A stretch of DNA of 64,000 bases from Escherichia coli. Its GTDB lineage: Bacteria > Pseudomonadota > Gammaproteobacteria > Enterobacterales > Enterobacteriaceae. Position numbers and translations under genes: made by a program. The notes below the pieces were generated by a model. It searched no databases. It was not told where the DNA came from and saw only the letters and a program-made list of their open reading frames with translations. Of this stretch, positions 2,598 to 61,414 are shown piece by piece. Each line of letters starts with the position of its first letter. The first letter of the stretch is position 1. The stretch lies in NCBI RefSeq assembly GCF_003334785.1, contig NZ_QOWV01000012.1; one strand, given 5' to 3'.

Positions 2598-5705
<3,108 letters not shown>

Positions 5706-12277: not shown

Positions 12278-15043
12278 TTGGGTCAATCAGAATACATTTC
12301 ATGGGTAAAATGTACTTCCTGGCTAAGTAACTTTGTGAATCTTAGAGGGTTGAGACAACCGGATGGCCGTCCTCTTTATGAATATCATGCAACCAATGAT
12401 GAATATAACCAATTAACGCAGCTACTCCGTGCAGTCGGTCAATCACAATCTAATATATGTAATAAGGACTTTGCTGCCTGTTTTGTTCTTTTTTGCTCTG
12501 AGTGGTACCGCAGGGATTATGAACGGCAATGCGGATGGACGTGGGACCCTATATATAAAAAAATAGGGATTTCATTTACCGCCACAGAGCTTGGTACCAT
12601 CGTACCGAAAGGGATGGACGATTACTGGCTGCGCCCAATTCGATTTTATGAATCTGAACGACGCAATTTTCTCGGAACATTATTCAGTGAAGGTGGTTTA
12701 CCTTTCCGGTTACTCAAAGAATCAGACAGTCGCTTTCTGGCTGTTTTCTCCAGGATCCTTGGACAATATGAGCAAGCAAAGCAGTCAGGTTTTTCTGCCC
12801 TTTCGCTGGCAAGAGCCGTCATAGAAAAATTAGCGCTGCCAACTGTTTTTAGCGAAGATACTTCTGTAGAACTTATCAGTCATATGGCTGATAACCTCAA
12901 TTCCTTAGTACTTACTCACAACCTAATAAATCACAAAGAACCAGTACAACAGCTTGATAAGGTTCACCCTACCTGGCGAAGCGAGTTTCCAATACCGTTA
13001 GATGATGAAACAGGAACGCATTTTTTGAATGGACTGCTATGCGCAGCCTCTGTAGAGGCTAAGCCTCGACTACAAAAAAATAAGAGTACGCGTTGCCAAT
13101 TCTATTGGTCAGAAAAGCATCCAGATGAGCTTAGGGCGATAGTATCTCTCCCTGACGAAGTTTCCTTTCCTGTAACAAGCGAGCCGTCAACTACGCGCTT
13201 TGAACTTGCCATTTGTGAAGATGGTGAGGAAGTCTCTGGCCTTGGGCCAGCTTATGCTTCCCTGGAAAACAGACAGGCAACAGTTCGATTACGTAAAAGC
13301 GAAGTGAGATTTGTCAGGCAAAATCCATCGGCAGGTTTGTCGTTAGTGGCTCGTGCTGGAGGGATGATTGTTGGGAGCATTAAACTTGATGACAGTGAAA
13401 TTGCCATTGGTGAGGTGCCGTTAACCTTCATCGTTGATGCAGATCAATGGCTGTTACAGGGACAGGCCTCCTGTAGTGTGCAAAGCAGCGATGTTCTGAT
13501 TGTGCTCCCTCGGGACAATAGTACTGTTGCTGGTTTTGATGGCCAATCGAGTGCAGTAAACGTATTAGGACTTGTCGCTATGACTCTGGCGGTTGCTCTG
13601 CGTCAGGCGCTAGCGGGCGTTCTGGGTATCTCCGGCGCAGAACTCGGCTATTCTGTACGCCCGGTCAGACTGGAGGATGGGCAATCGGTATTAGCCGTTC
13701 AGCTTTATGATGTGATCAGCGGTGGTGCAGGTTTTGCCTCCAGCGCACCGGTACACATTGAAGCTATTTTGCAGGGAATGGTGAAACAGTTAGGTTGCCG
13801 CCATTGTGATACTGCATGTAGTGAATGCCTGCTTGATTCCCAGACTCGCCACGATCACGATTTGCTGGATCGCAAAGCGGCGCTGGCCTGGCTTGGCGAT
13901 GACTTCACGTATTACATCGGTTTACCGGATGAAGAGACATTCTCGCTGCCGGATGCCCGCTACTGCCCTGGCGCTATTGGCGATACGATTCGCCGGGCGA
14001 TTAACGAAGGCGCTGAAAAGCTCACCCTGTGGATGACCGGCGCGCCCAATGAGTGGGATTTATACGCCCGTCAGTTCCGCGCGGCGGTTCAGAGCTATCG
14101 GCTAAAAGACAACGTCGAGGTCGATCTTGTTATACCTGCGGGAGTGGATGACCCGGATCTGTTGTATGAACTATCGCAATTTACTGCGCTGGGTGTGCGG
14201 CTGTGCCATGTTGAACAGGATCTGCAATTGCCGATCGTTGCCCAGGTTACCTTTGCCGATCGCGTGATGACGCTGGCTTCTCGCAGCCAGCAGGCAACGA
14301 TTCCGGGGCCGGAGTGGCACCTGAATGACGAACTGGTGGTGCGTAGTCTCGGTTATAAAACGGTAGAACTGAACGAGTTTATTCTGCCGGCTAAAGCCGC
14401 CAACGCTGTCGAGCGGGTCAAAGACATTCAGATCCACAAACAGTTGAATGGACCACTTTCGCAGTTTGGACAACGCTTCTGGGACGTGCTGTTTAACGAC
14501 CATGAAGAAGCACAGTCACTGATGAATAACACGCGAATTACCGGCGTTCACTATACCGATCGCTATCTGCAAAACCCGGTTGCGCTGGCGTTGTTGGGAT
14601 CAATTCTGAGACCGCTAAAAACAAAGCTGACCGATGGCGCTGAAGTGGCGCTGGATACGCTGTTTAAAGATAAAGATCGCCCCGGTAACCGGCCTTTCCA
14701 TGACTGGATGAGCATAGCGGATTTTCAGGATTTCGCTGATCAGTGGTTTGCTGCTGCGCTGGGCAGGCCGATAGAACTAACGGTGTTCGACTCGCCGCGC
14801 GATATCCCTCACCATCGTAAACTGACGGTGACTTTTGAGGATGGTCAGGTTTTGAAGATCCGCTTCGATCAGGGGATGGGCTACTGGCGTATCAACTTTG
14901 CATCGCAATGGCATTACTTTGACTTCCGCGATGACGTTTCTTTCCAGTTAGTCAAAATGGCTCAGGCCTGCAATGAAGGAAATGTGGCCAACAGCGAAGA
15001 GAGCTGGGCAACGGATGTGCTGGTGGAGGTGAGCGCCTCCTGA
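12278..15043 (+). CDS. Uncharacterised 921-aa protein in the immigration-control region; candidate single-gene defence / anti-MGE factor, function unknown
   Basis: Uninterrupted 2766-nt ORF; TTG start at 12278 preceded by AAGGAG 8 nt upstream; 0.5-kb AT-rich leader; intrinsic terminator immediately after the stop; CxxCx3CxxC motif at aa 507-517; no Walker A found by eye. It occupies the slot where K-12 has yjiT/yjiV/mcrC/mcrB. Confidence 0.7.
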
Positions 15044-15654: not shown

Positions 15655-16968
15655 TCAGGATTTTTTACGCGAGGCTTTTTTACCTCCGCTGGCTGCGCGT
15701 TCAGCTTTGATTTTTTCCAGCAACGCGGCGGCGCTGTTTTCTCCGCTGATTAATTCCGGGTTTTCGGCCCGCCACTGGGCGGTGAGTTCACCACGGAACG
15801 CTTTTGCCAGGATGGATTGCGTCAGGTTGTTAACGCGGGCTAAGGCGTTGTTGACCTGTTTTTCTATGGTGTCTGCGTAGGCGAAGAGCTGCTCGACGCG
15901 GCGAACGATTTCGTGTTGTTCGGGGAGTGGAGGAACAGTTATTGGGTATGCAATTAATTTCTGTGCATTAATATTTGATTGACTGACCCCATCAGATTTT
16001 ACTGAGTAGCAATATTGCCTCCCCAAAATGCTATTTAAATGGTAGTTAAGATAGTCAGGGTTTAAATCAGGTAAACATTGAACCCTAATCAAATAACCTG
16101 CATAAATAGCTGGTTGCTCTGATTTATATATGGCTGTTTTCCCGACAAGTTCAGGACTATTTGTACGATTGAATAATACATCATTGTACTCAAGTTTATA
16201 CTTTTCAATTTCTATGGTATCTGAAGTATAGACTAGATCCGTCCAGTCCAATTTTCCGCCCTGAAGATTGCCCATTCTTAATACAGGAATGAGTCCTTCT
16301 TTATTAGACTTAGATGACGTTCCATAACTTGGTTTTTTTATAAATTCCCCAAGTTTGCCTTCTATCCACCCAGACAGGCTCGAATTATCTCTCCAGTCTT
16401 CAGTTAGTTTTCCACTTACCGCGGCACCCAGCACCGCCTGACGAAAACGTTTCAGGATTTGTGGGATTTGCTCAAGACGTGCTTTGGTGCTCTCTACCTG
16501 CGCCAGCAGCGTATCGAGTTTTTCAGCGATGATTTTTTGTTCTGAAATTGGAGGAAGTTGTATTTCCCAAGCCTCCATTCCAGCTTTGGTAATATGTGGC
16601 ATTGCCACGCCGTGAGCCGATGCTTTAAGTGCCTCTGTAATATTCAATAATGCATAATAAGCAAATTGCTTATTAAGTGCAGGGGATGTTTCAATCTTCC
16701 AAATATGGTAGTGATAAATTAGTTTATGATCCCACTTCGACCAATATGGACCAAATGTTGCTGACCAAGCATATAGGAGATCATTTTTATAGCAATATTT
16801 ATCTTCCTGTAGCTCTAAGTTGGAATAAAACCATTTATTCCCTCCATTCAAATTTTGAATTCTGAGAATAGGAACACCTTCTGTGAGCATTTCTTCTTTC
16901 TTATATGCTCTGCCATTGATGAGGGTCAAAACATCACCCAACTGGCATATTTGCCAATTTTTACTCAT
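15655..16968 (-). CDS. hsdS: Type I restriction-modification specificity subunit HsdS (type IA / EcoKI family frame, non-EcoKI target-recognition domains)
   Basis: 437-aa ORF; central (LPPISEQKIIAEKLDTLLAQVESTKARLEQIPQILKRFRQAVL) and C-terminal (EQHEIVRRVEQLFAYADTIEKQVNNALARVNNLTQSILAKAFRGELTAQWRAENP) conserved regions match the EcoKI family; the two variable domains differ; ATGA overlap with hsdM. Confidence 0.9.
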   Translation of the reverse strand: MSKNWQICQLGDVLTLINGRAYKKEEMLTEGVPILRIQNLNGGNKWFYSNLELQEDKYCYKNDLLYAWSATFGPYWSKWDHKLIYHYHIWKIETSPALNKQFAYYALLNITEALKASAHGVAMPHITKAGMEAWEIQLPPISEQKIIAEKLDTLLAQVESTKARLEQIPQILKRFRQAVLGAAVSGKLTEDWRDNSSLSGWIEGKLGEFIKKPSYGTSSKSNKEGLIPVLRMGNLQGGKLDWTDLVYTSDTIEIEKYKLEYNDVLFNRTNSPELVGKTAIYKSEQPAIYAGYLIRVQCLPDLNPDYLNYHLNSILGRQYCYSVKSDGVSQSNINAQKLIAYPITVPPLPEQHEIVRRVEQLFAYADTIEKQVNNALARVNNLTQSILAKAFRGELTAQWRAENPELISGENSAAALLEKIKAERAASGGKKASRKKS

Positions 16969-27177: not shown

Positions 27178-27690
27178 TTAAATCGCAGCTTCCATTTCCA
27201 GCATCACCGGATGGAAACGGCGTTTAAAGTAGATAAGTCCGTGACCTTCTGCACTGAGGATGATGTTTTTAATCTCCACCAGATACACCAGATGTGTGCC
27301 AATTGCCTGCACATCGCGGATCTCACCTTCAAGACTGGCCAGCGAACCTTTTAGCACCGGCTGCGCCAGCGGACCTTTTTGCCAGCATGAGAGGCTAAAA
27401 CGCTCTTCCATCGCCATGCCTGTCATGCCCGCGAAGTGGCGTGCCATCAGTTCCTGCTCATGGTTGAGGACGTTGACGCACAACTTGCCGTTGCCCTGAA
27501 AAACCGGGTTCATCGCACTGTTGGCGTTAATGCACACCATCAGCGACGGTGGTGTATCCGTGACCGAGCAGACAGCCGTTGCCGTAATCCCGCATTGTCC
27601 GGTGTCGCCCTCGGTGGTGATAATATTTACCGCTGCCGACAGGCTGGCCATCGCGTCACGAAAGCGCAGGCGTTGTTCATCTAATTGCAT
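27178..27690 (-). CDS. hpaC: 4-hydroxyphenylacetate 3-monooxygenase reductase component (flavin:NADH oxidoreductase)
   Basis: 170 aa, flavin-reductase-like; directly downstream of hpaB. Confidence 0.9.
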   Translation of the reverse strand: MQLDEQRLRFRDAMASLSAAVNIITTEGDTGQCGITATAVCSVTDTPPSLMVCINANSAMNPVFQGNGKLCVNVLNHEQELMARHFAGMTGMAMEERFSLSCWQKGPLAQPVLKGSLASLEGEIRDVQAIGTHLVYLVEIKNIILSAEGHGLIYFKRRFHPVMLEMEAAI

Positions 27691-27707
27691 CTTAACCTCC
27701 TGCTGCG

Positions 27708-29270
27708 TTATTTCAGCAGCTTATCCAGCATGTTGATATCGTCGTTGTTGTGCAGGTGCGGCACAGTCCAGCCGTTCTGGTCGTATTCCGACAGGCAGCG
27801 ATCAACCATCGCCATCATCTTGTCCATATTGCCGGAGCTTTGTGCCTGGCGCAGACACTGCAGGCGAATCTCATCCTGGCTACCGGAGTAGTTGATTTCA
27901 TACAGTTCGTGGCGACCACCAAACTCGCTGCCAATGGCGTCCCACATCAGTTTGAGGATCTTGATGCGCTGGACGTGATCCATACCATTCGAACCGCGCA
28001 CATACTTCGCCAGATACTGGTCGATCTGCGGATTGTTCAGGTCACGGGCACTGGAAGGGAGGTAGATCAGGCCACTGGTAACGTTGCGTTCGATAATGTT
28101 TTTGATCTTCGCGTAGGCCATTGGTGCCAGTACGCGATAGGTTTGCAGTGCGGCATGATCCGGTAAATAAGCCCCGTTGACCCACGGCGTCGCTTCAGAA
28201 CACATCGAGTCACTCAATGCCCAGAAGGTGTTGCGCCACGCCACCACTTCACCGAGATCGGCCTGCACACCACGGAACTCCAGGGTGCCGGTACATTCGA
28301 GTGATTTTTTCAGCAGTGCCGTAATGAAGTCGAGTTTCACTGCCAGGCGCACACAGGCTTGCAGCGGATACATACGGGCAAAACCGCCTTCCATCGTCCA
28401 GCGACGGCAGCGATCAAAATCGCGGTAGATCAGCACGTTTTCCCATGGGATCAGCACGTTATCCATCACCAGAATCGCATCATTCTCATCGAAGCGGCTG
28501 GAGAGCGGGTAGTCATACGGTGAGCCGGTAGCACCCGCGACCATCTCATAAGAGGCGCGGGAGATTAATTTCACGCCATCAGCATCCATTGGCGCAACGA
28601 ACATCAGCGCGAAGTCCGGGTTTTCGCCCATTACTTGTGCCGAGCCGAAGCCAACCATGTTGTAGTGAGTCAGCGCCGAGTTGGTGGCAACCACTTTCGC
28701 ACCGCTAACGATAATCCCGGCGTCAGTCTCTTTTTCCAGCTTGATGTAAACGTCTTTCACTTTATCGGTCGGCAAATGACGATCGATCGGTGGGTTAACA
28801 ATCGCGTGGTTAAAGTAGAGGCCAGTTTCCTGAATACGGGTATACCAGTTACGGGCGTTCTGCTCGAACTGACCGTAAAAGCCCGGATTCGCGCCCAGTG
28901 CGCAACCGAAAGCAGCTTTGTAGTCTGGGGTACGGCCCATCCAGCCATAGCTCAGGCGTGACCACTCAGCGATGGCGTCGCGTTGCTGGCGCAGGTCGTC
29001 GGCACTTTTCGCCACGCGGAAGAATTTATGGGTATAGCCGCCGCTGCCGGTGTCGGTGTTCCAACACAGAGAGTCCTGCATCTCCGGTTTGTGCAGCGCG
29101 TCGTACAGTTGGGCAACAGACGCTGCCGCATTACGAAATGCCGGATGAGTAGTGACGTCTTTCACTCGCTCGCCATAGATATAGATCTCGCGACCATCCT
29201 GCAGGCTTTTCAGATACTCTTCCCCGGTGAACGGACGTTGGGTACTGGCGCGGAAATCTTCTGGTTTCAT
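27708..29270 (-). CDS. hpaB: 4-hydroxyphenylacetate 3-monooxygenase oxygenase component
   Basis: 520 aa, MKPEDFRASTQRPFTGEEYLKSLQDGREIYIYGERVKDVTTHPAFRNAAASV..., two-component flavin-dependent monooxygenase. Confidence 0.9.
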   Translation of the reverse strand: MKPEDFRASTQRPFTGEEYLKSLQDGREIYIYGERVKDVTTHPAFRNAAASVAQLYDALHKPEMQDSLCWNTDTGSGGYTHKFFRVAKSADDLRQQRDAIAEWSRLSYGWMGRTPDYKAAFGCALGANPGFYGQFEQNARNWYTRIQETGLYFNHAIVNPPIDRHLPTDKVKDVYIKLEKETDAGIIVSGAKVVATNSALTHYNMVGFGSAQVMGENPDFALMFVAPMDADGVKLISRASYEMVAGATGSPYDYPLSSRFDENDAILVMDNVLIPWENVLIYRDFDRCRRWTMEGGFARMYPLQACVRLAVKLDFITALLKKSLECTGTLEFRGVQADLGEVVAWRNTFWALSDSMCSEATPWVNGAYLPDHAALQTYRVLAPMAYAKIKNIIERNVTSGLIYLPSSARDLNNPQIDQYLAKYVRGSNGMDHVQRIKILKLMWDAIGSEFGGRHELYEINYSGSQDEIRLQCLRQAQSSGNMDKMMAMVDRCLSEYDQNGWTVPHLHNNDDINMLDKLLK

Positions 29271-29520
29271 GTCGACCTCTACAGTATTAATCGGAATACG
29301 ATTGTTAATTTTGTGTGTTGTTTTTGTTATTCAATTGAAGCTTGCAGGGGCGATTACGGGAAGAGACTTTTGGGACAATGGCTGGTACTTTTCAGGTCGG
29401 GTACGGTTTTGTGATCGAGGTCGCTTTTAGCGATTTTTGACGTTACTAAATCCCCTTGCTCCAGGCGGAGAAAGGGGAATAGCAGGTGGTGCCTGGTTTC
29501 CCGTTAAGGCTAAGGGATTT

Positions 29521-30411
29521 TCACGTCACAGGTACTTTTTTGGCACGATAAGCACTGGGCGAGCAACCGACTAAGCGATAAAAAAAGCGCGCAAAATAAG
29601 CCGGATCCTTAAAACCGAGTTGCCAGGCAATATTGTTCACGGCGTTATCAGAAAACAGCAGCAGCCGCTTGGCTTCTCGCAGCTGCCTGTCGAAAATCAA
29701 CCGTTTTGGCGGACGGTTGGCAAAGCGACGGCAGATGTCCGTGAGTCGTGATTCGGTGATATGCAGTTCGTTAGCGTAATCCGGTACTGTCCAGTGCTGA
29801 TGAAAATGGCTTTCAATCAGCATATGAAAACGCTGGAACAGTTTTAATTCTCCGCGCATCCCGCTGGCGGCATGGTCGTCGAGTTTTGCGTTACGCAGCA
29901 GTAGGGTGAACACTGCCTGTGCCAGGAGCGTCAGGGTGTGTTCCCGTCCAGGCAGTTGTTCCACCGATTCCCGCTCTATCAGTTGCCAATAGTGTTCCAG
30001 CGCCGCCAGTTCGTCGGGTTTATCTGCCAGTGACAGGCAAATCCCCGGCAGGCCGAAGGTTTCCCGAGTGCCCGGATACAGAACTTCCAGCAGGGGCCAG
30101 ATCAGATCTTCCCGTACCGTCAACACATGACCGTCGGCGTCAGACTCCGTAATAAACGCATGAGGTACTGACGGCGGCGTCAGGACAAACAGGGGCGCTT
30201 CCACCGAGTAGCGATGATCGTCAAGCTGTAGCTCAATCTGTCCGCTATTGAGGAAATGCATCTGAAAGTACTGTTCGTGGCGATGTGGCAGCATATGGCG
30301 GCCAAAAAATGCCGCCATGCGGGCGAACGACTGATAATGCACATCGTCCGTACCCAGGCTTTCATCGTACTCTTTGCTGATATCAATATTGGCAATCTGA
30401 CGGTCACGCAT
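29521..30411 (-). CDS. hpaA: AraC/XylS-family activator of hpaBC
   Basis: 296 aa with C-terminal AraC-type HTH; upstream of hpaBC. Confidence 0.85.
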   Translation of the reverse strand: MRDRQIANIDISKEYDESLGTDDVHYQSFARMAAFFGRHMLPHRHEQYFQMHFLNSGQIELQLDDHRYSVEAPLFVLTPPSVPHAFITESDADGHVLTVREDLIWPLLEVLYPGTRETFGLPGICLSLADKPDELAALEHYWQLIERESVEQLPGREHTLTLLAQAVFTLLLRNAKLDDHAASGMRGELKLFQRFHMLIESHFHQHWTVPDYANELHITESRLTDICRRFANRPPKRLIFDRQLREAKRLLLFSDNAVNNIAWQLGFKDPAYFARFFYRLVGCSPSAYRAKKVPVT

Positions 30412-30420
30412 CGTCGTTCC

Positions 30421-31797
30421 TTACGGGGTCGCTCGCGGACGGGAGGACTGCATTGGAATCGCCCAGATAATCCCCGCACCAATCACCAGCAGCGCGGCAA
30501 CAAACCACAATCCACTGTTAAAGCTGCCGGTCAGATCTTTCAACCAGCCGATCATAAACGGACTTAATGCTGAACCAATGTTGCCAGTGGCGTTGATCAC
30601 CGCAATACCGATCGCTCGTGCCCGCAGGCTGATGGACTGATCCGGTGTTGTCCAGAAAATCGCCATTGCGCTGAATGATCCTGTCGAAGCCATAATGATC
30701 CCCAGCATCTGGATCATGTTGTGATCAGTTGCCGAAGCCAGTAACCAACCAGCGGCAGCGAACAAATAAGGAAGGGCGGTGTGATGCCTTCGTTCCTGGC
30801 GGTGATCTGAGTGACGGCTCCAGTAAATCATCCCGAGAATGGTACAAATCTGCGGTACGGCGGCCAGCAGGCCGATGGTGATATTACTGCTGCCCTGATT
30901 AAAGCTTTGCAGGATCTGCGGTGTCCAGATGCTGATCGCACTAAGTGTGTTGGTCAGGCAGAAATACGCCAGGGTATACATCATCACCACCGGAGTGAAG
31001 ATCTCCCGCCACATGCTGCGTTGTTGCATGGCGTGGTGGCTGATGGCTCCCTCTGGCTGAACCAGCGTCAGACGATCGTTATCCATCATCTCTTGCAGGC
31101 ATTTTTTGTCTTCTTTCGTCAGCCACTTAGCTTTGTCCGGTGAGTCATCAAGCCAGAACCACACCATGATGCCGAGTAATACCGACGGGAAGCCTTCCAG
31201 CAAAAACAGCCACTGCCAGCCTTTTAATGCCATTACGCCATCCAGCGACAAAATGTAGCCGGAAACGATCGATCCCAACGCTGTCGTTACCGGCATTGCC
31301 ACCATAAACAAGGCGTTGGCACGGGCGCGGAAATAGGCCGGAAACCAGAAGGTTAAATACAGCAGAATGCCAGGCAGAAAGCCGGCTTCGGTAATGCCAA
31401 CCAGTATACGCAGTACGTACAAGCTGGTGGGGCCAGTGGCAAACATGGTGGCAGTAGAGGCGATGCCCCAAAGCACCATGATGGTGGCGATCCAGCGCCG
31501 CGCACCGACAATACTCAGCATAATGTTGCTGGGAATGCCGAAGATGACATAAGCGGCGTAGAACAGGGTGGTGGCGAGGCCAAACATGGTGGCGCTCAGA
31601 CCGAGGTCGCGTCCCATCGTGAGTCCGGCAAAGCCGATGTTGATGCGATCAAGGAACGAGAAGATAAACAGCACGAACAGAAAGACGATCAGGCGGCGAA
31701 ACAGCTTCTTAATAACCGCCTGTTGTCCGGCAGTCAGCGCTTTATGCTGATTCGCCGGATCGATACTCTCCGGTATGGCAGGTGAGGTGTCGCTCAT
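30421..31797 (-). CDS. hpaX: 4-hydroxyphenylacetate MFS permease
   Basis: ORF 30421-31857; ATG at 31797 gives 458 aa starting MSDTSPAIPESIDP; 12-TM MFS pattern. Confidence 0.85.
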   Translation of the reverse strand: MSDTSPAIPESIDPANQHKALTAGQQAVIKKLFRRLIVFLFVLFIFSFLDRINIGFAGLTMGRDLGLSATMFGLATTLFYAAYVIFGIPSNIMLSIVGARRWIATIMVLWGIASTATMFATGPTSLYVLRILVGITEAGFLPGILLYLTFWFPAYFRARANALFMVAMPVTTALGSIVSGYILSLDGVMALKGWQWLFLLEGFPSVLLGIMVWFWLDDSPDKAKWLTKEDKKCLQEMMDNDRLTLVQPEGAISHHAMQQRSMWREIFTPVVMMYTLAYFCLTNTLSAISIWTPQILQSFNQGSSNITIGLLAAVPQICTILGMIYWSRHSDHRQERRHHTALPYLFAAAGWLLASATDHNMIQMLGIIMASTGSFSAMAIFWTTPDQSISLRARAIGIAVINATGNIGSALSPFMIGWLKDLTGSFNSGLWFVAALLVIGAGIIWAIPMQSSRPRATP

Positions 31798-31857
31798 TTT
31801 TCTTCCTCTAATGGGATTTTTGTAGGGTACGACAAGGTTTATGGCGGATGCGCACAA

Positions 31858-31970
<113 letters not shown>

Positions 31971-31971
31971 A

Positions 31972-32760
31972 TTAATACACGTCGGGCTTAATCGCTGTAG
32001 CCTGCGCACCAAACCGTGCTGCCAGCGCTTCGGCGGCGCGGGCGAGCAGGGTGGTGTCAACGCCGACGGCGACAAACAGCGCGCCCAGTTCCAGATAGCG
32101 TTTTGCCAGTTGCTCATTGGCGATCAGGATCCCCGGCGCTTTGCCCGCTTCGCGGATCTGCACGATCGCCTGCTCAATCGCGGCCTGTACTTCCGGGTGC
32201 TGAGGATTACCGGCATAACCCATATCGGCGCTCAGATCCGCCGGGCCGATAAACACGCCGTCGACCCCTTCCACGTCCAGAATCTGCGGTAAGTTCTTCA
32301 TTGCCTCACGCGTTTCGATCTGCACCAGCACGCACATTTGATCGTTGGCTTTTTGCAGGTAATCAGGAATACGATTCCAGCGCGAGGCTCGGGCCAGCGC
32401 ACTGCCCACACCGCGAATACCGGCGGGGGGATAACGGGTGGCGCGTACCGCTTCACGGGCTTCGTCAGCGTTTTGAACCATCGGCACCAGTAAGGTTTGT
32501 GTGCCGACATCCAGCAGTTGTTTGATTTGCACCGGATCGTTCCACGACGGACGTACCACCGGCTGGCTGGGGTAGGGCGCAATCGCCTGTAGCTGGGTGA
32601 GCACGGTTTGCACGTTATTCGGCGCGTGCTCACCGTCGATCAATAACCAGTCGAATCCTGCTCCGGCCAGTAACTCTGCGCTGTAGCTGCTACTTAGCCC
32701 CAGCCATAATCCGATCTGCGGGCGGCCTGCTTTCAGCGCCGCTTTAAAACTGTTTTCCAT
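31972..32760 (-). CDS. hpaI: 4-hydroxy-2-oxoheptane-1,7-dioate (HHED) aldolase
   Basis: ORF 31972-32901; ATG at 32760 gives 262 aa starting [26 protein letters not shown] (HpcH/HpaI aldolase family). Confidence 0.85.
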
Positions 32761-32770
32761 CGTTCTCTCC

Positions 32771-33574
32771 TTAAACAAAGCGGCAGCTAATGGAGCCCAT
32801 GTTGCCGTAATCGACGTGGAAGGTATCGCCCTTACGCGCCGGAACCGGGCGGGTGAACGAACCGCCGAGAATGATTTGCCCGGCTTCCAGTTGTACGTCA
32901 TACGGTGCGAGTTTGTTCGCCAGCCAGGCCACGCCGTTTGCCGGATGATTTAGCACACCAGCGGCGACGCCAGTTTCTTCAATCACGCCATTGCGATACA
33001 TCAGGGCGGAGATCCAACGCAGATCCAGTTCGTCTGGTTTGATCGGACGACCGCCGAGGATCACTCCGGCGTTGGCGGCGTTATCAGAAATGGTGTCGAA
33101 CACTTTGCGCGGGCGCTGGGTTTCCGGATCGATGTTGTGGCAGCGGGCGTCGATCAGCTCCAGCGCCGGGATCACGTAGTCCGTGGCGTTGTAGACGTCG
33201 AACAGCGTGCAGTTTGGCCCACGCAGCGGTTTTGCCAGCACAAAAGCCAGCTCCACTTCAATGCGCGGCACGATAAAGCGATCGGTCGGGATATCGCTGC
33301 CATCGTGGAAGAACATGTCGTCCAGCAATGCACCGTAATCTGGCTCGCTGATTTGTGAGCTGGCCTGCATCGCTTTCGAGGTCAGGCCGATTTTGTGGCC
33401 TTTCAGCGTGCGGCCTTCGGCGATTTTCAGTCGGACCCATTCGCGCTGTACGGCGTAGGCGTCTTCAATGGTGATCTCCGGGTAATCCAGCGAGATCGCG
33501 CGGATCTGTTCACGCTGTTTTTCTGCCTGATCCAGACGCTGGGCGATCAGGGTGTGGGTGTGTTTATCGAACAT
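32771..33574 (-). CDS. hpaH: 2-oxo-hept-4-ene-1,7-dioate hydratase
   Basis: ORF 32771-33592; ATG at 33574 gives 267 aa starting [26 protein letters not shown]. Confidence 0.85.
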
Positions 33575-33641
33575 AGCGATATCCTGTGGCATTGCCGGAT
33601 GCGGCTGCGCCTTATCATCCAGCCTGGAAGCTGGTGCAAAT

Positions 33642-34022
33642 TTATTTAAACAACGCGTGTACGTTGTTCTGTTTGAAATTCAACGTCGGGTGCAGCTCTG
33701 CAATCTCAAATGAAAGCGCCAGGTAACGGCTCTCCATCAGTGAGGCGAAGTGCGTTTTAATCAGATCAAACAGCATTTCGCCTACTTCCTGACGGCTTTC
33801 CAGACTGCGCCCGCTGCCGATTTTTAGCGTCATATGCACAAAGGCGTAATCGTGCTTGCCATCAGCCATTTGCCAGGTATCGATCCAGTGTGCCCGGCTA
33901 CGTATTCCCCCAAGCGGAAAAATCCCCGTCGCCGCCAGTGCGGTGTTAACACTGGCAAACAGCTCAGGTAAGCGGGCTTCTTGACGAATATTTTCAGTAC
34001 ATTCCACGATAAAGTGCGGCAT
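33642..34022 (-). CDS. hpaF: 5-carboxymethyl-2-hydroxymuconate isomerase
   Basis: 126 aa, [46 protein letters not shown]. Confidence 0.85.
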
Positions 34023-34031
34023 GGTTTTTCC

Positions 34032-34883
34032 TTACGCGGGAAGCGGGAAAACAGCGTTAACCTGACCAGTGCCAGAGCTTGGGAACAGCTCGGTAATAAA
34101 CTCCACCTTGCCGTCGTATTTATCCCAGCCGAGCATCCCCAGCAGCATCACCGTGTCGTGCATATTGCCTTCGCCGTAGCAGTAGTCGGCGTACTCCGGC
34201 AGCATATTGCAGAACTCTTTGAACTGGCCTTCGCGCCACAGCTTCACCACGCGCTCGTCCATCTGGCGGTCGAACTCGCGGGTGTAGCTGTTCATCCCTT
34301 CTTCTGCACGCTGATCGTCAATAAAGCGGTGCGATAACGAACCGCTGGCAAGGACCGCCACGGTGCCGTCGTACTGTTCGATCGCTTTCAGAATCGCTTC
34401 GCCCAGCTTGCGGCTGTCGGCAAAATCATGAACGGTACAGAATGCGGAGATGGAGACCACTTTGAAGTGCTTGTCTTCATTCATGTAGCGCATCGGCACC
34501 AGCGTGCCGTATTCCAGTTTCAGGCTGGGAATGTTGTGCGTTTTTGCCCGCACGCCGAGCTTTAAGGCTTCATCGGCAATTAGCTGCCCCAACTCCGGGT
34601 TGCCCTCGTAGTTGTAGGTCATGTCACGAATAAAATGCGGCAGCTCGTTACTGGTGTAGACGCCTTCAAAATGGTCTGCACAGTTGATGTGATAAGCACT
34701 GTTGACCAGCCAGTGGGTATCGAAAACGATAATGGTATCGACGCCCATTTCCCGGCAACGCTTGCTGATCTCTTTATGCCCGTCGATCGCACCCTGGCGG
34801 CAACCGTGGTTTTTCCCAGGCAGCTCAGAGAGATACATCGACGGTACGTGCGTGATCTTGGCGGCTAACGCTAACTTACCCAT
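34032..34883 (-). CDS. hpaD: 3,4-dihydroxyphenylacetate (homoprotocatechuate) 2,3-dioxygenase
   Basis: 283 aa extradiol dioxygenase, MGKLALAAKITHVPSMYLSELPGKNHGCRQGAIDGHKEI. Confidence 0.9.
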   Translation of the reverse strand: MGKLALAAKITHVPSMYLSELPGKNHGCRQGAIDGHKEISKRCREMGVDTIIVFDTHWLVNSAYHINCADHFEGVYTSNELPHFIRDMTYNYEGNPELGQLIADEALKLGVRAKTHNIPSLKLEYGTLVPMRYMNEDKHFKVVSISAFCTVHDFADSRKLGEAILKAIEQYDGTVAVLASGSLSHRFIDDQRAEEGMNSYTREFDRQMDERVVKLWREGQFKEFCNMLPEYADYCYGEGNMHDTVMLLGMLGWDKYDGKVEFITELFPSSGTGQVNAVFPLPA

Positions 34884-34884
34884 A

Positions 34885-36351
34885 TCAGACTCCCCATTTC
34901 GGAATTGGATGGTCGCCCATGGAAATGCAGACGTTCTTCATTTCCGCGAACACTTCGAAGCTGTACTCACCGCCTTCACGCCCGGTGCCGGAGGCTTTTA
35001 CGCCGCCAAATGGCTGGCGCAGGTCACGCACGTTCTGGGTGTTGACGAACACCATGCCAGCTTCAATGCCACGCGCCAGGCGTAACACTTTGCTGACATC
35101 CTGTGTCCAGATGTACGACGCGAGGCCGTACTCCACGTCGTTTGCCAGACGTAAGCCTTCGGCTTCGTCTTTAAACGGCAGCAGGCAGGCGACCGGCCCG
35201 AAAATCTCTTCCTGGGCAACGCGCATACGGTTATCTACGTCCGCCAGCACCGTTGGGCGCAGGAAGTTGCCGCCTTTCAGGTGTGCAGGCAGGTCAGACG
35301 GTTTATCCGGGCCGCCCGCCAGCAGGGTTGCGCCTTCTTCAATGCCGAGACGGATATAGCCGGAGACTTTATCCCAGTGTTGCTGGCTGATAAGCGCCCC
35401 AACCTGGGTATTCGGATCGTTCGGATCGCCCACGCGCAGACGGTTGGCGCGTTCGGCAAAGCGTTTAACGAATTCCGGGTAGATGCTTTGCTGAATAAAG
35501 ATGCGCGAACCGGCGGTGCAGCGCTCGCCGTTGATCGAGAAGATGGTGAACAGGGCGGCGTCCAGCGCGCGTTCAATATCGGCATCTTCAAAAATCAGCA
35601 CCGGCGATTTACCGCCCAGTTCCATGGAGTATTTTTTCAGCCCGGCGTTTTTCATGATGTTGCGCCCGGTGGCCGTACCGCCGGTGAACGACACGGCACG
35701 TACGTCATGATGACGAACCAGCGCATCGCCTGCGGTTGCGCCGTAGCCCTGTACCACGTTCAGCACGCCTGCCGGAATACCGGCTTCCAGCGCCAGCTCA
35801 CCCAGGCGGTCAGCGGTCAGCGGGGAGAGTTCCGACATTTTCAGTACCGCGGTATTGCCCAGCGCCAGACACGGCGCGACCTTCCATGTGGCGGTCATAA
35901 ACGGTACGTTCCACGGCGATACCAGCGCACAAACGCCCACCGGCTGCACCAGCGTGTAGTTGAGCATCTTGTCGTCAACCGGATAGGTCTTGCCGTTCAT
36001 CTGCTGGCAGACTTCCGCGAAAAATTCAAAGTTGTGGGAAGCGCGTGGGATCAACACATTTTTGGTCTGATGGATCGGCAGGCCGGTGTCCGCGGTTTCC
36101 ATCGCGGCGATCTCTGGCACGTTCTGGTCGATCAGATCGCCCAGACGGCGCATCAGGCGCGCACGCTCTTTCATCGGCAGATTGGCCCATTTCGGGAACG
36201 CCTCTTTCGCTGCCGCTACCGCCTGATTGATCTCCGCTTCACCGCCAGAGGCCACATCCGCCAGCACTTCACCCGTTGCCGGATTGGTGGTCTGAAAGTA
36301 GTCGTTACCTGCAACATTTTTGCCGTTGATCCAATGATTTACTTTTTTCAT
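34885..36351 (-). CDS. hpaE: 5-carboxymethyl-2-hydroxymuconate semialdehyde dehydrogenase
   Basis: 488-aa NAD-dependent aldehyde dehydrogenase, MKKVNHWINGKNVAGNDYFQTTNPATGEVLADVASGG. Confidence 0.9.
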   Translation of the reverse strand: MKKVNHWINGKNVAGNDYFQTTNPATGEVLADVASGGEAEINQAVAAAKEAFPKWANLPMKERARLMRRLGDLIDQNVPEIAAMETADTGLPIHQTKNVLIPRASHNFEFFAEVCQQMNGKTYPVDDKMLNYTLVQPVGVCALVSPWNVPFMTATWKVAPCLALGNTAVLKMSELSPLTADRLGELALEAGIPAGVLNVVQGYGATAGDALVRHHDVRAVSFTGGTATGRNIMKNAGLKKYSMELGGKSPVLIFEDADIERALDAALFTIFSINGERCTAGSRIFIQQSIYPEFVKRFAERANRLRVGDPNDPNTQVGALISQQHWDKVSGYIRLGIEEGATLLAGGPDKPSDLPAHLKGGNFLRPTVLADVDNRMRVAQEEIFGPVACLLPFKDEAEGLRLANDVEYGLASYIWTQDVSKVLRLARGIEAGMVFVNTQNVRDLRQPFGGVKASGTGREGGEYSFEVFAEMKNVCISMGDHPIPKWGV

Positions 36352-37637
36352 TTCGCTGTTTCCTCACTCACAATTCGGTTCACCAGGCAGCCCACGCCTT
36401 CTACTTCCACCACTACTTCATCGCCAGGCACCACGTCAGATAAGCCTTTTGGTGTGCCGGTGGCGATCATGTCGCCCGGATTCAGGGTCATAAATTCGCT
36501 TAAGTAGGCGATCAGGAAGGGCACGCTGAAGATCAGATCGGCGGTGGTGCCTTGCTGGCGTAACTCGCCGTTGACGAAGGTGCGAAGGGTCAGATTATGC
36601 GGGTCCGGGATCGCCTCTTTCGGCACGATGGTTGAAAGCATCGGCGTCAGTCCGTCGCGGCTTTTTACCCGCAGGTTAGGGCGGTAGTAGTTTTCCAGAT
36701 AGTCGCGAATGGCGTAGTCGTTACACACGGTGTAGCCCGCGACATAATCCATGGCATCGGCTTCGCTGACGTTACGCGCCTGTTTGCCAATAACTACCAC
36801 CAGCTCCGCTTCATAGTGCATGTATTCAATATTGTTTGGACGCACGGAGGTCTGGTTATCGCCAGTGAGGGTATTTGGCGCTTTCAGGAACACCAGCGGT
36901 TCTTCCGGTGGCTTAAATTCCAGTTCGCTGGCGTGGTCGGCGTAGTTCAGGCCGAGGGCAAACAGCGTGCCGTGCGGGTGTGGCTGCGTTGGGAAGCTCT
37001 TGCGCGTGGTCACTTCACGTTCGTCCACTACCGGATTTTCCAGCGGCGGGAAACCTTCTGCGAGAACACGAACGCGATCGCCTGGCTGTATTTCCACGCG
37101 CGCCTGTGGCGTGCCGAGCAGAATGGCATCGCCTGGATTCAGTGTGGCAAATTCGCTCAGGGCGCTCAGCAACTGCGCGGCGTTACGTTGTAAATCGGCG
37201 GTATTCCAGTGATCGGCAGGACGCCCGTTGATCTCGGTATAGATGGTCAGATTATCGACATTGCTGAGAGCCACGGTTTCGCCAATGGGGCAGAATCCAT
37301 CACGACATTTTGCTTTGATTGCCGGGCGGTAAAAGCTCTCTTCCGGCAGGCTGACGTCGTTAGCCAGCGCATATCCGGCGATGTACTCTGCCGCATCTTC
37401 TTCACGTACTTTCGTCGCCGTTTTTCCCACAATCAGCGCAACAGTCGCACCGCTCAGTACCTTTTCACCCTGTGGAAAGGGAATCGGTTCACCGCAACCA
37501 ATCACCGTATTGCGCGGTTTAATAAACCAGACCGCAGTTTTAGGCGGGGCTTTGTAGGGGGATTGCTGGAACGCTTCCTGCCATGCATCAAGTTGGCTGC
37601 GATGGTTCAACGCTACGGCGAAGATAGTGCCTTTCAT
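36348..37637 (-). CDS. hpaG: Bifunctional 2-hydroxyhepta-2,4-diene-1,7-dioate isomerase / 5-carboxymethyl-2-oxo-hex-3-ene-1,7-dioate decarboxylase
   Basis: ORF 36348-37643; ATG at 37637 (GAGGAG Shine-Dalgarno upstream) gives 429 aa; duplicated FAH-family domains. Confidence 0.85.
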   Translation of the reverse strand: MKGTIFAVALNHRSQLDAWQEAFQQSPYKAPPKTAVWFIKPRNTVIGCGEPIPFPQGEKVLSGATVALIVGKTATKVREEDAAEYIAGYALANDVSLPEESFYRPAIKAKCRDGFCPIGETVALSNVDNLTIYTEINGRPADHWNTADLQRNAAQLLSALSEFATLNPGDAILLGTPQARVEIQPGDRVRVLAEGFPPLENPVVDEREVTTRKSFPTQPHPHGTLFALGLNYADHASELEFKPPEEPLVFLKAPNTLTGDNQTSVRPNNIEYMHYEAELVVVIGKQARNVSEADAMDYVAGYTVCNDYAIRDYLENYYRPNLRVKSRDGLTPMLSTIVPKEAIPDPHNLTLRTFVNGELRQQGTTADLIFSVPFLIAYLSEFMTLNPGDMIATGTPKGLSDVVPGDEVVVEVEGVGCLVNRIVSEETAK

Positions 37638-37662
37638 TACCACTCCTCGGATTCGATCATCT

Positions 37663-37686
37663 TAATCATTAATATGTTAATGATTA
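37663..37686. promoter_or_regulatory. Perfect 10-bp inverted repeat (TAATCATTAA-tatg-TTAATGATTA), candidate HpaR operator in the hpaG promoter
   Basis: Palindrome seen directly, 26-49 nt upstream of the hpaG start in the hpaG-hpaR divergent region; HpaR is known to repress this promoter through palindromic operators. Confidence 0.4.
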
Positions 37687-37908
37687 CTTTTATTCCCGAT
37701 TGCGTAGTTTGGCAAAAGTAAGTGATGTAAATGTGATCTAATTAACAAACTATTTACATTTAAAGATAATAAAATATTAAATATCATTAAGTTAATAAAA
37801 TATCATCAATTTTGATAAAATCAGGAATTGCAGGGACAGCGCAGTCCCGGTAACGTGACGATTAACTGTTTCTATATTAATAATTTTGAATTTTTCAGGG
37901 GAAAGATA

Positions 37909-38355
37909 ATGCACGACTCTCTAACCATTGCGTTGCTCCAGGCGCGAGAAGCGGCGATGAGTTATTTTCGCCCAATCGTTAAACGGCATAATTTGACTGA
38001 GCAACAGTGGCGCATCGTGCGTATTCTGGCGGAAAGCCCATCAATGGATTTTCACGATCTGGCGTATCGTGCCTGCATTTTGCGCCCAAGCCTGACCGGG
38101 ATCCTTACGCGGATGGAACGCGACGGTTTAGTGTTGCGATTAAAGCCGATCAATGATCAGCGGAAGCTCTATATCTCGCTGACCAAAGAGGGGCAGGCGC
38201 TGTATAACCGCGCTCAGACACAGATTGAAGAAGCCTATCGGCAGATTGAAGCTCAGTTTACTGCCGAGAAAATGCAACTGTTAACCCATCTGTTAGAGGA
38301 ATTTATTGCTCTGGGCAATTCCCGACAAGAAGACATCCCGGGCGATAATGAATAA
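37909..38355 (+). CDS. hpaR: MarR-family repressor of the hpa meta-cleavage operon
   Basis: ORF 37828-38355; ATG at 37909 gives 148 aa starting MHDSLTIALLQAREAAMSYFRPIVKRHNLTEQQWRIVRILAESPSMDFHDLA (MarR winged helix). Confidence 0.85.
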   Translation: MHDSLTIALLQAREAAMSYFRPIVKRHNLTEQQWRIVRILAESPSMDFHDLAYRACILRPSLTGILTRMERDGLVLRLKPINDQRKLYISLTKEGQALYNRAQTQIEEAYRQIEAQFTAEKMQLLTHLLEEFIALGNSRQEDIPGDNE

Positions 38356-43977: not shown

Positions 43978-46269
43978 TTACCCTTCACGTTCCACAACTT
44001 TAATTTCCACCATGCCGATCCCGAGCTTACGCGGCGAGTGTCCGAGGATATTCCCTTCGTTGGTTGAGACAGGTTCCGGCGGCACAATTACCAGTGTGTC
44101 GGCATCGGTTGGGTTATCGAAATGCAGTGTGGTGGTGGTCACTTCATTGCCCAGCACAAGAGTTTGTTCTTCATTGCCTACGCGTACCGGAATAGGACGG
44201 CTGGCGTTATTGCCGTATGCTTTGGCGGTAATCACCAGGTCAAATTTCTTCGGCAGCGGATGCTTGTACTCGATTTTTACTTCATCGCCCAGCTGCGCGT
44301 TGGACCAGCGGCCCCACGACTCTGGACGGGAAATCCCACTAAACTGTTTCACCTCTTCTGGCGCACCGGCGACGTTGAAGATGAAACTGTCGGCTTTGTA
44401 GCGAATATCGTTATCAACAATTTTCAGCGTATCGACATTGCCTTTATAACGCGCCATGTCGATGACCGTATCTTTAAATGCCGTTTTGCCCTGCCATGTT
44501 GTTTTGTCAACATGCTGAACAATTTGCTGACCGCCAAGCTGCCCTTGCGAGACACACCAGTCGGTGGAGAGTGCCAGTTCCGGAGCCCAGAGTTGTGCCA
44601 TCTTATAGCAACGGTCAACCCAGACGAAATTGTCGCGTGGAGCGAAATCGGCCAGCTGGAAACGCAGCGGTGCTGAGTATTCGCTTTCCGGCAGCGGTTC
44701 CACGCGTTTGTCTGAAACCCGCAACAGCAGCGGCAAACGGAAATGGCTACCCGAGAAGGCAATTATGTTTTTCTGCTGGTCGATGGTGAACTCTTTCATC
44801 TCTTTAGGGAATTTCCACAGGCGGATGATATCCGGCTTCCACGCCAATGTTTTCTCTTTGATATTGAGGAAGATTTCCGACATTGACTGCCCGGATAAAC
44901 TGCTACGACCAAGTCCGAGATAGTTATCGCCACCGAGAATGTCCAGCACCGTCGCGCCGTTATCCATCGTGTTACGCTTCACTGCCAGCGTCTCTTGCTG
45001 CGGCTTGTCGCCACGAATGACAAAAAACAGGTTATTGCGATCCTGCTTATTGAGGTATTTCCACGCCGTGTTGTTCATCGCTAAATGGTCAGAAGAGACG
45101 ACGATGACGGTATCTTTAAACCACGGTGACGCTTTGATTTTGTTGATAAACGCCGCGATATTCTCCTGGCTGCAACTTACCGCGCTGAATGACTGGTTCG
45201 GCTTACCGTCAAGATCATATTTTTTGCGGTTACAGGTACGCGAGATAAAACCATCCGGGTGATGGGTATCGACTGTCAGGGTAAACAGTGAGAATCGCTG
45301 ACCTGAGCGGGAAAGCTCTTCAAACTTTTTCCACGCTTCATCGAGAACGGTATCGTCGTAGAATCCCCAGTCGTTGCGATAGTGCGGGTCGGCCACCACG
45401 CTTTTCAGCTCTTCTGAGCCGTATAAGTGGTCGAAGCCATGCGACTTCAGGAACACATCTTTACCGGCAAAACGCAGATTCGCGCCCTGCACGAAATAGT
45501 TCTGATAACCCGAGTTTTTCAGGATATCGCCCAGACAGATGTTCTGCGGGAAGAAGCTGGAGACAGAGGCGGAGGCGTTGCCTTCAAAGGGGGCAAACAG
45601 CGGTATGCCGCACTGAGAAGCCACCATGCCCGCAATCGTGTAATCCGTTCCTGGCAGCTGCTGCGTGTGGCTGAAATCCAGGCCTTCATTTTTCAACGCG
45701 CCCAGTTCAGGCGTGAGATCCGGGAAAGCTTCGTTATCAAAATAGGTCCGCTCGAGACTTTCGCCGTAGATATAAACCAGGTTGAGTTTCGGGTCAGGGA
45801 TAGTTTTCGACGGCTCTTTATAATAAGCCGCAAAGTCCGGGTCGCCATCGCGTGACTGGGATTTCACCAGTTCCGTTATCTGACGAAATGCCGGGCTGGC
45901 GTCCACCGAACCCAGCGCCAGTAAGAGCGCCAGCAGGCTGTAACCAAAATGGTGCGGATGATGGCGACGACGGCGCAGGATCCAGCCCAGCGCACCGAAC
46001 ACCGCTGTCAGCCCCAGCACAATGCCGATACCCGGCAGGATGTATTTGCTGACGCCAGCACCGGTCAGGCTGTTGGTTAAGGTATAGAGAACCGCGTCGT
46101 TAATACCAGCGCCAGTAAAATAGTCGCTGGCAAACAGGGTGATATTTAAAACGACAAATAGCCCCAGCACCGTTAATGTGGCTGCAAACCACCAGGTGTT
46201 ACGTCCCGCTTTCCATGCGTAAATCAGCACAGAGGCGAGAAAAAGGGCGAAAGAGAGTAGTTCTGACAA
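43978..46269 (-). CDS. opgB: Phosphoglycerol transferase I (osmoregulated periplasmic glucan biosynthesis)
   Basis: 763 aa, [38 protein letters not shown]..., sulfatase-like domain. Confidence 0.9.
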
Positions 46270-52633: not shown

Positions 52634-52870
52634 ATGTTGCAACGTACGCTGGGCAGTGGCTGGGGAGTGTTGCTGCCGGGATTGCTGATTGCAGGGCTGA
52701 TGTATGCGGATTTATCGCCGGATCAGTGGCGGATTGTCATTCTGATGGGATTAGTATTGACGCCGGTGATGCTGTATCACAAACAGTTACGGCATTACGT
52801 TTTGCTACCATCGTGCCTGGCGCTTATTGCTGCCATCATGCTGATGATAATGAATTTGAATCAGGGATGA
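52634..52870 (+). CDS. yjjZ: Small inner-membrane protein YjjZ (78 aa), Fur-regulated
   Basis: ORF 52523-52870; ATG at 52634 gives 78 aa starting MLQRTLGSGWGVLLPGLLIAGLMYADLSPDQWRIV. Confidence 0.7.
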   Translation: MLQRTLGSGWGVLLPGLLIAGLMYADLSPDQWRIVILMGLVLTPVMLYHKQLRHYVLLPSCLALIAAIMLMIMNLNQG

Positions 52871-52908
52871 AAAATCAAGGAAGAAACAAGAAAGGAAGTA
52901 AAGATAAT

Positions 52909-52995
52909 TGGTGCGAGGGGGGGGACTTGAACCCCCACGTCCGTAAGGACACTAACACCTGAAGCTAGCGCGTCTACCAATTCCGCCACCTTCGC
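52909..52995 (-). tRNA. leuV: tRNA-Leu (anticodon CAG), single copy
   Basis: Minus strand reads GCGAAGGTGGCGGAATTGGTAGACGCGCTAGCTTCAGGTGTTAGTGTCCTTACGGACGTGGGGGTTCAAGTCCCCCCCCTCGCACCA, 87 nt with encoded CCA; cloverleaf and long variable arm typical of tRNA-Leu. Confidence 0.9.
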
Positions 52996-53029
52996 ATACC
53001 ATCAATTCTTAAAAAGAATTGCTACCACG

Positions 53030-53070
53030 GAGGCGCATTCTAGTGGTTTTCAGCTTTTCGTCAATAGTTA
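53030..53070 (-). promoter_or_regulatory. Sigma-70 promoter for the tRNA-Leu gene
   Basis: Minus strand: TTGACG -35, 16-17 bp spacer, TAGAAT -10, followed by a GC-rich discriminator (gcgcctcc) typical of stringently controlled stable-RNA promoters. Confidence 0.45.
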
Positions 53071-53114: not shown

Positions 53115-53292
<178 letters not shown>

Positions 53293-53303
53293 CGGCGAGA
53301 TAA

Positions 53304-54335
53304 TTAACCTTTCTTCGCCTGGCGGGTCATAATGGCGCGATACACCTTGAAACGCCCGGTTTGCGCAATCACTTCATGGAAGCCAAATGTCTCATCCAGC
53401 ACGTCCGGGTAAGGCAGGAAGGCGTTCGCTACAATTCGCAGCTCGCCGCCGCTATTAAGATGACGCACCGCGCCGCGAATCAGCGTTTGCGCCGCATCCA
53501 GGCTGGTTTGCATCCCATCGTGGAACGGCGGGTTGGAGATGATCATATCAAAACGACCTTTCACCTCGGAAAAGACGTTGCTGGCAAAGACTTCACCTTC
53601 AACACCGTTGGCCGCAAGTGTTGCGCGGCTGGCTTCTACCGCTGGCGCAGAGACATCGCACAAGGTGAGACGAATTTTCGGCGAATGGCGCGCAAAGGCA
53701 ACTGAAAGCACACCCGCGCCACAGCCGACATCCAGCACTTTACCTTTCGTGTGCGGGGTTAACGTCGAGAGCAGCAACTGGCTACCGACATCCAGACCGT
53801 CGCGGCTAAACACGCCAGGCAGCGTTTTGACCGTCAGGCCATCGACGCTGTATTCGCCCCAGAATTTATCGGCATCAAATACCGGCTGTTTTTCCAGACG
53901 ACCAAAATAGAGGCCACAGCGACGAGCGCTGTCGACTTTATTCAACGGCGCATAATCTGCCAGCATCTGCTCGGCGCTGCGCACGCCGCTGCGGTTCTCG
54001 CCAACGACAAAAATATCTGTCCCCACTGGCAGCAGAGAAAGTAAATTCATCAACTGGAACTGGGCTTCCGGTTTGTTCTTCGGCCAGTAGTAAATCAGCG
54101 TATCGCAATCTGCGACGTCATCCACCGTGGCGACCAGACTGAAACGGGCGTTATCCCCCATCTGGCGGCTTAATACCTGCCAGTGGTGGAATTGCTGGGT
54201 ATGAGCACGGCTGGCCGCGGTATCTAAACGCGCGGGCAGGTCATCCTGTAAGTCTCCGGCAAACAGAATACGGCTTTGTTCGAAATCATCACTGTGACGC
54301 AGCAAGACTTCACTTGCCGGGGTAAATGCAGACAT
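53304..54335 (-). CDS. rsmC: 16S rRNA m2G1207 methyltransferase RsmC
   Basis: 343 aa, [38 protein letters not shown]; SAM-binding motif [12 protein letters not shown]. Confidence 0.9.

Positions 54336-60902: not shown

Positions 60903-61414
<512 letters not shown>

Follow-up and report, generated by a model that had tools for sequence, protein, structure and literature searches.

The window, by which we mean the whole stretch of 64,000 nucleotides of Escherichia coli DNA that was analysed, holds a single tRNA-Leu gene with the anticodon CAG between yjjZ and rsmC. This 87-nt gene occupies 52909-52995 on the minus strand, is matched over the same interval by the Rfam tRNA model RF00005 and is the only tRNA gene that ARAGORN detected in the entire 64 kb. 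A preliminary description of this DNA had reported a lone gene at this position and no further tRNA within 300 bp on either side, and both statements were confirmed. The gene order in collinear annotated genomes is fhuF, yjjZ, tRNA, REP elements, rsmC, holD and rimI, and the window is collinear in this respect with the annotated genomes of K-12, FDAARGOS_1337, Z1323CEC0018 and HS30-1. The convergent downstream neighbour is yjjZ (DUF1435; 52634-52870, plus strand), assigned through the ORF list, collinear annotation and an exact-protein look-up, and the upstream neighbour is rsmC (53304-54335, minus strand; ORF list and annotation), which encodes the 16S rRNA m2G1207 methyltransferase.

On the 5' side of the tRNA gene, a consensus scan predicted a strong sigma-70-type promoter for the operon (53037-53064, minus strand), whose -35 element TTGACG (53064-53059) and -10 element TAGAAT (53042-53037) are separated by a 16-nt spacer and together match the consensus at 10 of 12 positions; the stable-RNA-type promoter that had been described here was thus recovered. 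The G+C-rich discriminator GCGCCTCC (53036-53029) follows, and with the 5' leader it extends to the mature 5' end of the tRNA (52996-53036, minus strand); both discriminator and leader are the same in K-12 when the sequences are aligned. Between the promoter region and rsmC lies a cluster of REP/BIME palindromic units (53125-53300), which was delimited by alignment and one unit of which (53143-53225, 70 bits) is recognized by the REP-derived Rfam family naRNA4. There are three such units in the window and in FDAARGOS_1337, two in K-12 and one in HS30-1, a variation that does not follow the number of tRNA genes.

The tRNA gene of the window is identical at 87 of 87 positions to leuV and leuQ of both K-12 and FDAARGOS_1337. 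Its leader is that of leuQ, and its trailer is that of leuV (CCA-AUUAUC), the latter assignment having been made by setting the window sequence against Table 1 of PMC2190699. The 3' trailer (52871-52908, minus strand) has no hairpin terminator, and a sequence scan of the minus strand downstream of the tRNA gene found no terminator-like site. In K-12, the leu operon is transcribed from one promoter, RNase P cuts the pre-tRNAs apart and removes the leader independently of RNase E, and the operon ends in hairpin-less, Rho-dependent termination, after which PNPase and RNase II trim the transcript; this operon supplies three quarters of the tRNA-Leu1 genes (PMC2190699). By analogy, a Rho-dependent end and trimming by PNPase and RNase II would be expected in the window strain. 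The run of eight G in the leu tRNA gene (eight C in the tRNA), which has been reported to be an indel hotspot in mismatch-repair-deficient lines, is unbroken in the window.

The preliminary description had given K-12 three tandem gene copies at this site, and this is correct: MG1655 carries leuV, leuP and leuQ here, with spacers of 34 and 28 nt, rather than a single gene. The window therefore has one tRNA-Leu(CAG) gene in the transcription unit in place of three in tandem. The difference is of a simple form. If exactly 236 bp are taken out of the closest complete relative, FDAARGOS_1337, which has three copies, what remains matches the window across 5,265 bp with 0 mismatches. In K-12 as in FDAARGOS_1337, leuV and leuQ are identical to each other, and leuP differs from them at one site, position 40 on the plus strand, which is tRNA position 48 in the variable arm. 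The identity of leuV and leuQ runs 1 nt past each gene end, so that the two form an 89-bp perfect direct repeat with a period of 236 bp; spacer 1 of the three-copy array is ACAGTCATCTTACTTTTTTTGATATCGCCTCGTT and spacer 2 is CCAGTGCGAGCAATATCAACGTGGTTTT. The end points of the missing stretch fall in these perfect direct repeats, and exactly one unit is absent. In the window, the stretch that is perfectly repeated in three-copy relatives corresponds to 52908-52996, as defined by repeat extension and a k-mer test, and the crossover or slippage point, or the collapsed node of an assembly graph, is somewhere inside this interval and has left no scar.

We give about an even chance to the reading that the window carries a one-copy allele of the conserved leuQ-leuP-leuV operon that arose by the real loss of one 236-bp unit in the cell. 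The parent would have had three copies, with its outer genes leuV and leuQ forming the perfect 89-bp direct repeat 236 bp apart and leuP, with its one SNP, between them. Unequal homologous recombination or replication slippage between the outer copies would then have removed one 236-bp unit, that is, one gene-equivalent, leuP and both spacers, and would have left a single intact gene under the original promoter with the leader of leuQ and the trailer of leuV. Such an operon would yield one tRNA per transcript instead of three. Loss by recombination between tandem repeats had been proposed for this site from the outset, and the clean removal of one unit, with no mismatch in the flanks, supports it; on this reading, the event would have taken place in the cell rather than in the assembler.

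That such deletions occur can be seen from the frequency of the one-copy state among complete genomes. Junction-specific queries with strict E-value cut-offs were run against 5,426 complete RefSeq E. coli genomes; the one-copy query was the 207-nt junction at E <= 1e-80, a cut-off that only an uninterrupted match can pass. This uninterrupted junction of yjjZ flank, tRNA and promoter flank, which the window has in the same form as natural one-copy alleles, was present in 425 of the 5,426 genomes (7.8%), a raw count that, like the other copy-number counts given here, is inflated by clonal sampling. The spacer-1 junction and the spacer-2 junction were each present in 4,999 genomes. Approximately 290 of the 425 one-copy genomes are of the O157:H7 type, with 99.0% identity to the junction, 73 match it exactly and the rest have 96-98% identity. 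Among the exact matches are the AVS, Ec-050, GF and 2020S05-013 series, clones of which every isolate carries a single copy, together with about 25 unrelated single strains and the K-12 laboratory strains MC1061 and ME8067. Because whole clones and the approximately 290 O157:H7-type genomes carry the one-copy junction, it is clear that in nature this deletion does occur, is inherited and is compatible with viability. One match to the one-copy junction comes from a record that is labelled a plasmid. Copy classes based on coverage of a 1,301-nt query (501 genomes at >=80%) were dropped, as matches to this query join or split at the repeated tRNA.

Two-copy arrays were found in at most about 4 of the 5,426 genomes, and such scarcity would follow from a preference for the perfect outer repeats as partners in exchange. 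One of these few, Z1323CEC0018, belongs to the lineage of the window itself, and we count the existence of this variant in favour of a real event. The one-copy state was already known: it is a common copy-number polymorphism of a well-studied tRNA operon. McDonald et al. 2015 (Table S1) tabulated, without discussion, variation in the number of CTG-Leu tRNA genes, namely 4 in MG1655, 2 in EDL933, 3 in Sakai, 6 in S. sonnei Ss046 and 4 in E. fergusonii.

Within its own lineage, the window stands apart. The comparison was made over the region 40000-64000 of the window with collinear complete genomes, and eight of the nine closest, all at 100.0% identity, exceed the window in length there by 236-237 bp and thus have three copies, and the ninth exceeds it by 121 bp and has two. 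A tenth genome at 100.0%, RM10410, was set aside, for an ISVsa5 insertion makes its span uninformative. No collinear complete genome of one-copy length was found at >99.0% identity over this region. Over its whole length, the window differs from FDAARGOS_1337 by 13 SNPs and two 1-nt indels. Even closer is a 145-kb contig of GCA_012211965.1, hereafter L174, which matches the window at 100.000% identity over two stretches of 17,019 and 1,126 nt and carries three tRNA genes. Since this clone-mate has three copies and the closest complete genomes have three or, in one case, two, the single copy is, within its lineage, private to the assembly of the window and is not a heritable trait shared by these related isolates.

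L174 also carries the rare OpgB allele of the window, and it is the only carrier of this allele that was read at the tRNA locus. The allele (43981-46269, minus strand) differs from that of FDAARGOS_1337 by one SNP at 45213 and occurs on only 9 contigs of a collection of 153 billion genes, all of them drafts of 10-200 kb, which makes it a useful clone marker. A second marker is a 921-aa ORF (12278-15043, plus strand), in which the N-terminal domains of YjiT are joined in frame to the C-terminal MZB domain of YjiV, a helicase. The exact fusion protein is rare, with 42 blocks in the collection, every one of them on a contig <200 kb; relatives have in this region a 2,114-aa YjiV (L142) or pseudogene fragments (FDAARGOS_1337), and the 110 bp of the window at 13458-13567 stand in place of about 1.8 kb in FDAARGOS_1337. 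By the same exact-protein look-up, the YjjZ, YjjU and YjjG alleles of the window are too widespread to mark the clone (35,671, 65,469 and 59,368 blocks, respectively), and its hsdS protein was found in 7,579 blocks.

Several further features of the window were observed in the course of this comparison. The hsdS gene, which encodes a type I restriction specificity subunit (15655-16968, minus strand), is intact in the window and is split into two CDS in FDAARGOS_1337 by a 1-nt difference at 16827; this split may be a record error or a real frameshift. A complete hpa cluster for 4-hydroxyphenylacetate catabolism lies at about 27178-38355, between btsT and tsr; we take this cluster to be absent from K-12 and present in E. 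coli B, C and W. Between yjjV and yjjW, at 60916-61403, a 101-bp unit with REP-like palindromes is repeated in tandem in 4.8 copies with 94% matches, and, from coordinate arithmetic, the draft contig ABZEZO010000021.1 of a clone-mate appears to end in this array.

The main alternative is that the strain has three copies and that its assembly collapsed. The preliminary description had raised this possibility, and we rate its chance at a little under even. A short-read assembler working with a k-mer or overlap length of not more than about 90 would merge leuV and leuQ into one node and walk from the yjjZ flank straight to the promoter flank, dropping the loop of spacer 1, leuP and spacer 2. The number of junction k-mers that are absent from a three-copy relative is 0 at k = 21-89, 9 at k = 99 and 37 at k = 127. 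For every k tested up to 89, but not at k = 99 or 127, the one-copy junction can thus be walked in the de Bruijn graph of the three-copy genome, so that a collapse would leave the same sequence as a real deletion of very recent date. The window probably stems from a short-read draft, since every carrier of the lineage markers, whether the YjiT-YjiV fusion or the OpgB allele, is a draft contig <200 kb. The three copies in L174, which has the same rare OpgB allele and 0 mismatches over 18.1 kb, point in the same direction, and the draft contigs of other species often end inside the array, which indicates that assemblers struggle there.

Sporadic one-copy records whose relatives have three copies also favour collapse, and the K-12 stocks provide an example. 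Once the same 236 bp are taken out of MG1655, its sequence agrees over 4,207 bp with the deposited complete genomes of MC1061 and ME8067 (L128 and L129), at 0 and 1 mismatches, respectively, and DH10B (L131), which we take to be a descendant of MC1061, has three copies; the single copy in MC1061 and ME8067 reflects either stock-specific deletions or assembly collapse. Three copies are also present in E. coli SCPM-O-B-8794 (L037). However, most of the draft contigs that we examined either resolve the three copies or break at the array instead of collapsing, and genuine one-copy alleles are common. In principle, equal coverage on the two branches that leave the repeat should not normally lead an assembler to solve the fork by skipping. 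Moreover, the contig of the window also reads through the 488-bp array of 101-bp repeats, in which that of the clone-mate seems to stop.

Beside a real deletion and a collapse, two other origins were considered and rejected on the basis of flank identity, the copy number of relatives and a survey of species. The allele might have been acquired by recombination from another E. coli lineage that already had one copy, with a donor resembling AVS or HS30-1, for instance, and the 73 complete genomes of many backgrounds whose 207-nt junction is identical to that of the window speak in favour of this; nevertheless, we regard such an import as very improbable. The flanks equal those of the three-copy clone-mate L174 for 17 kb on one side and for 1.1 kb on the other, where the L174 locus ends, without a SNP, and the 5.3 kb around the site equal FDAARGOS_1337, again without a SNP. 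An import would be expected to bring donor SNPs or another number of REP units, neither of which is present, and even the closest complete genomes with one copy reach no more than 99.0% identity over 24 kb.

The direction of change was read from a pattern scan of one genome per species, in which the block TAGAATGCGCCTCC, the -10 hexamer together with the discriminator, had to be followed, after a gap of 20-50 nt, by the tRNA start; this arrangement was found in at least 120 species-representative Enterobacterales genomes, the loci lying in Enterobacteriaceae, Erwiniaceae and Dickeya. Among the 96 loci that are not cut by the end of a locus or contig, 88 have three copies, five have two and three have one. 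Because 88 of the 96 loci have three copies, we conclude that three copies are ancestral and that the window represents a loss. That one copy is ancestral and three-copy strains gained theirs has in its favour nothing beyond one-copy genomes in several species (L050, L097 and L118) and is scarcely credible given these 88 loci, the approximately 92% of E. coli with three copies and the close relatives of the window, all of which have three except one with two. In the commonest three-copy pattern, seen at 20 loci, the two outer copies are identical and the one between them departs from them at tRNA position 48, and it seems that an old variant tRNA gene has been kept in the middle of the array despite concerted evolution, in other genera too. 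In another record (L141, JBJYMY010000001.1, 3277-3596, on a 3.9-Mb contig), all three tRNA genes are 86 nt long, and none agrees with the 87-nt gene when up to 2 mismatches are allowed; their length may be due to a homopolymer error affecting the run of eight G.

The reciprocal product of an exchange between outer copies also exists in the population. CP049179.1 (L136) has a five-copy array at 3276-3834 in which the copies follow the pattern G-A-G-A-G and the spacers the order s1, s2, s1, s2; it is a gain of the 236-bp unit. The fourth copy of this array has an additional G-to-A change inside the run of eight G. The five-copy junction was found in none of the 5,426 complete RefSeq E. coli genomes. 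Copy number in E. coli thus shifts mostly by two, from three to one or from three to five, and rarely by one, which is consistent with a preference for the perfect 89-bp repeat over partners that are interrupted by the SNP. One may speculate further that leuQPV is an odd-number switch with states of one, three and five copies, in which the SNP of the middle gene confines exchange to the outer copies, that losses from three to one are positively selected where growth is slow or nutrients are scarce (O157:H7, wastewater clones and old laboratory stocks), and that the window strain is a fresh case within its clone; we consider this broader proposal unlikely.

A real deletion would leave the strain with two tRNA-Leu(CAG) genes genome-wide instead of four, on the assumption that leuT, which lies outside the window, is present; this is half the normal gene number for the major tRNA reading CUG, the codon that E. 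coli uses most. An MG1655 derivative lacking all three genes (delta-leuVPQ) is viable, the share of the focal tRNA falls in it and the remaining copies do not compensate, and tRNA redundancy has been found to be of benefit in rich media and to carry a cost when nutrients are limiting (Raval et al. 2023, eLife, PMC9981150). By analogy with this deletion strain, a one-copy allele would be expected to lower the tRNA-Leu1 pool, at a mild cost when growth is fast in rich medium and with either no effect or a gain under poor conditions; applied to the window strain, this published work would lead one to expect slower growth in rich medium and perhaps an advantage in a poor one. Hundreds of public genomes already carry the allele, and a published copy-number table reflects it, so the window adds one more occurrence and no new phenomenon. 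Its value lies rather in a warning: differences in tRNA copy number at tandem arrays in draft assemblies call for confirmation at the level of reads before they are interpreted.

Among known systems, the leuQPV operon of K-12 MG1655 (b4370-b4368) resembles the window in its position in the series yjjZ, tRNA, REPs and rsmC and in its tRNA sequence, promoter hexamers, discriminator, leader and 3' trailer. It differs in having three genes where the window has one, with leuP and both spacers gone from the latter, and in having two upstream REP units where the window has three. The one-copy allele of O157:H7 and other lineages (for example TW14359 and HS30-1) has the same collinear junction of flank, tRNA and promoter as the window, with 100% identity over 207 nt in the 73 exactly matching genomes and 99.0% in O157:H7; for EDL933, the likeness is known only from a genome-wide count, the 2 CTG-Leu genes in Table S1 of McDonald 2015. 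In O157:H7 and the other one-copy lineages, the state extends across a clade or clone, whereas for the window it is found in one assembly whose clone-mate L174 has three copies. Collapsed tandem repeats in short-read assemblies are similar in that a repeated node is visited once and the loop is skipped; a collapsed repeat is a property of the assembly and not of the cell, although its sequence is the same as that of a real deletion. The engineered delta-leuVPQ strain of MG1655 (PMC9981150) likewise has a lower dosage of tRNA-Leu(CAG) genes at the same operon, along with the phenotype expected of this, a smaller tRNA share with a cost in rich medium and a benefit in poor medium, but it lacks all three genes and is left with leuT only, whereas the window keeps one gene and the promoter. 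Finally, the five-copy array of CP049179.1, beside which the tabulated 6 CTG-Leu genes of S. sonnei Ss046 may be listed, shares with the window the 236-bp unit and the identical outer partners, and it differs from the window in being a gain instead of a loss.
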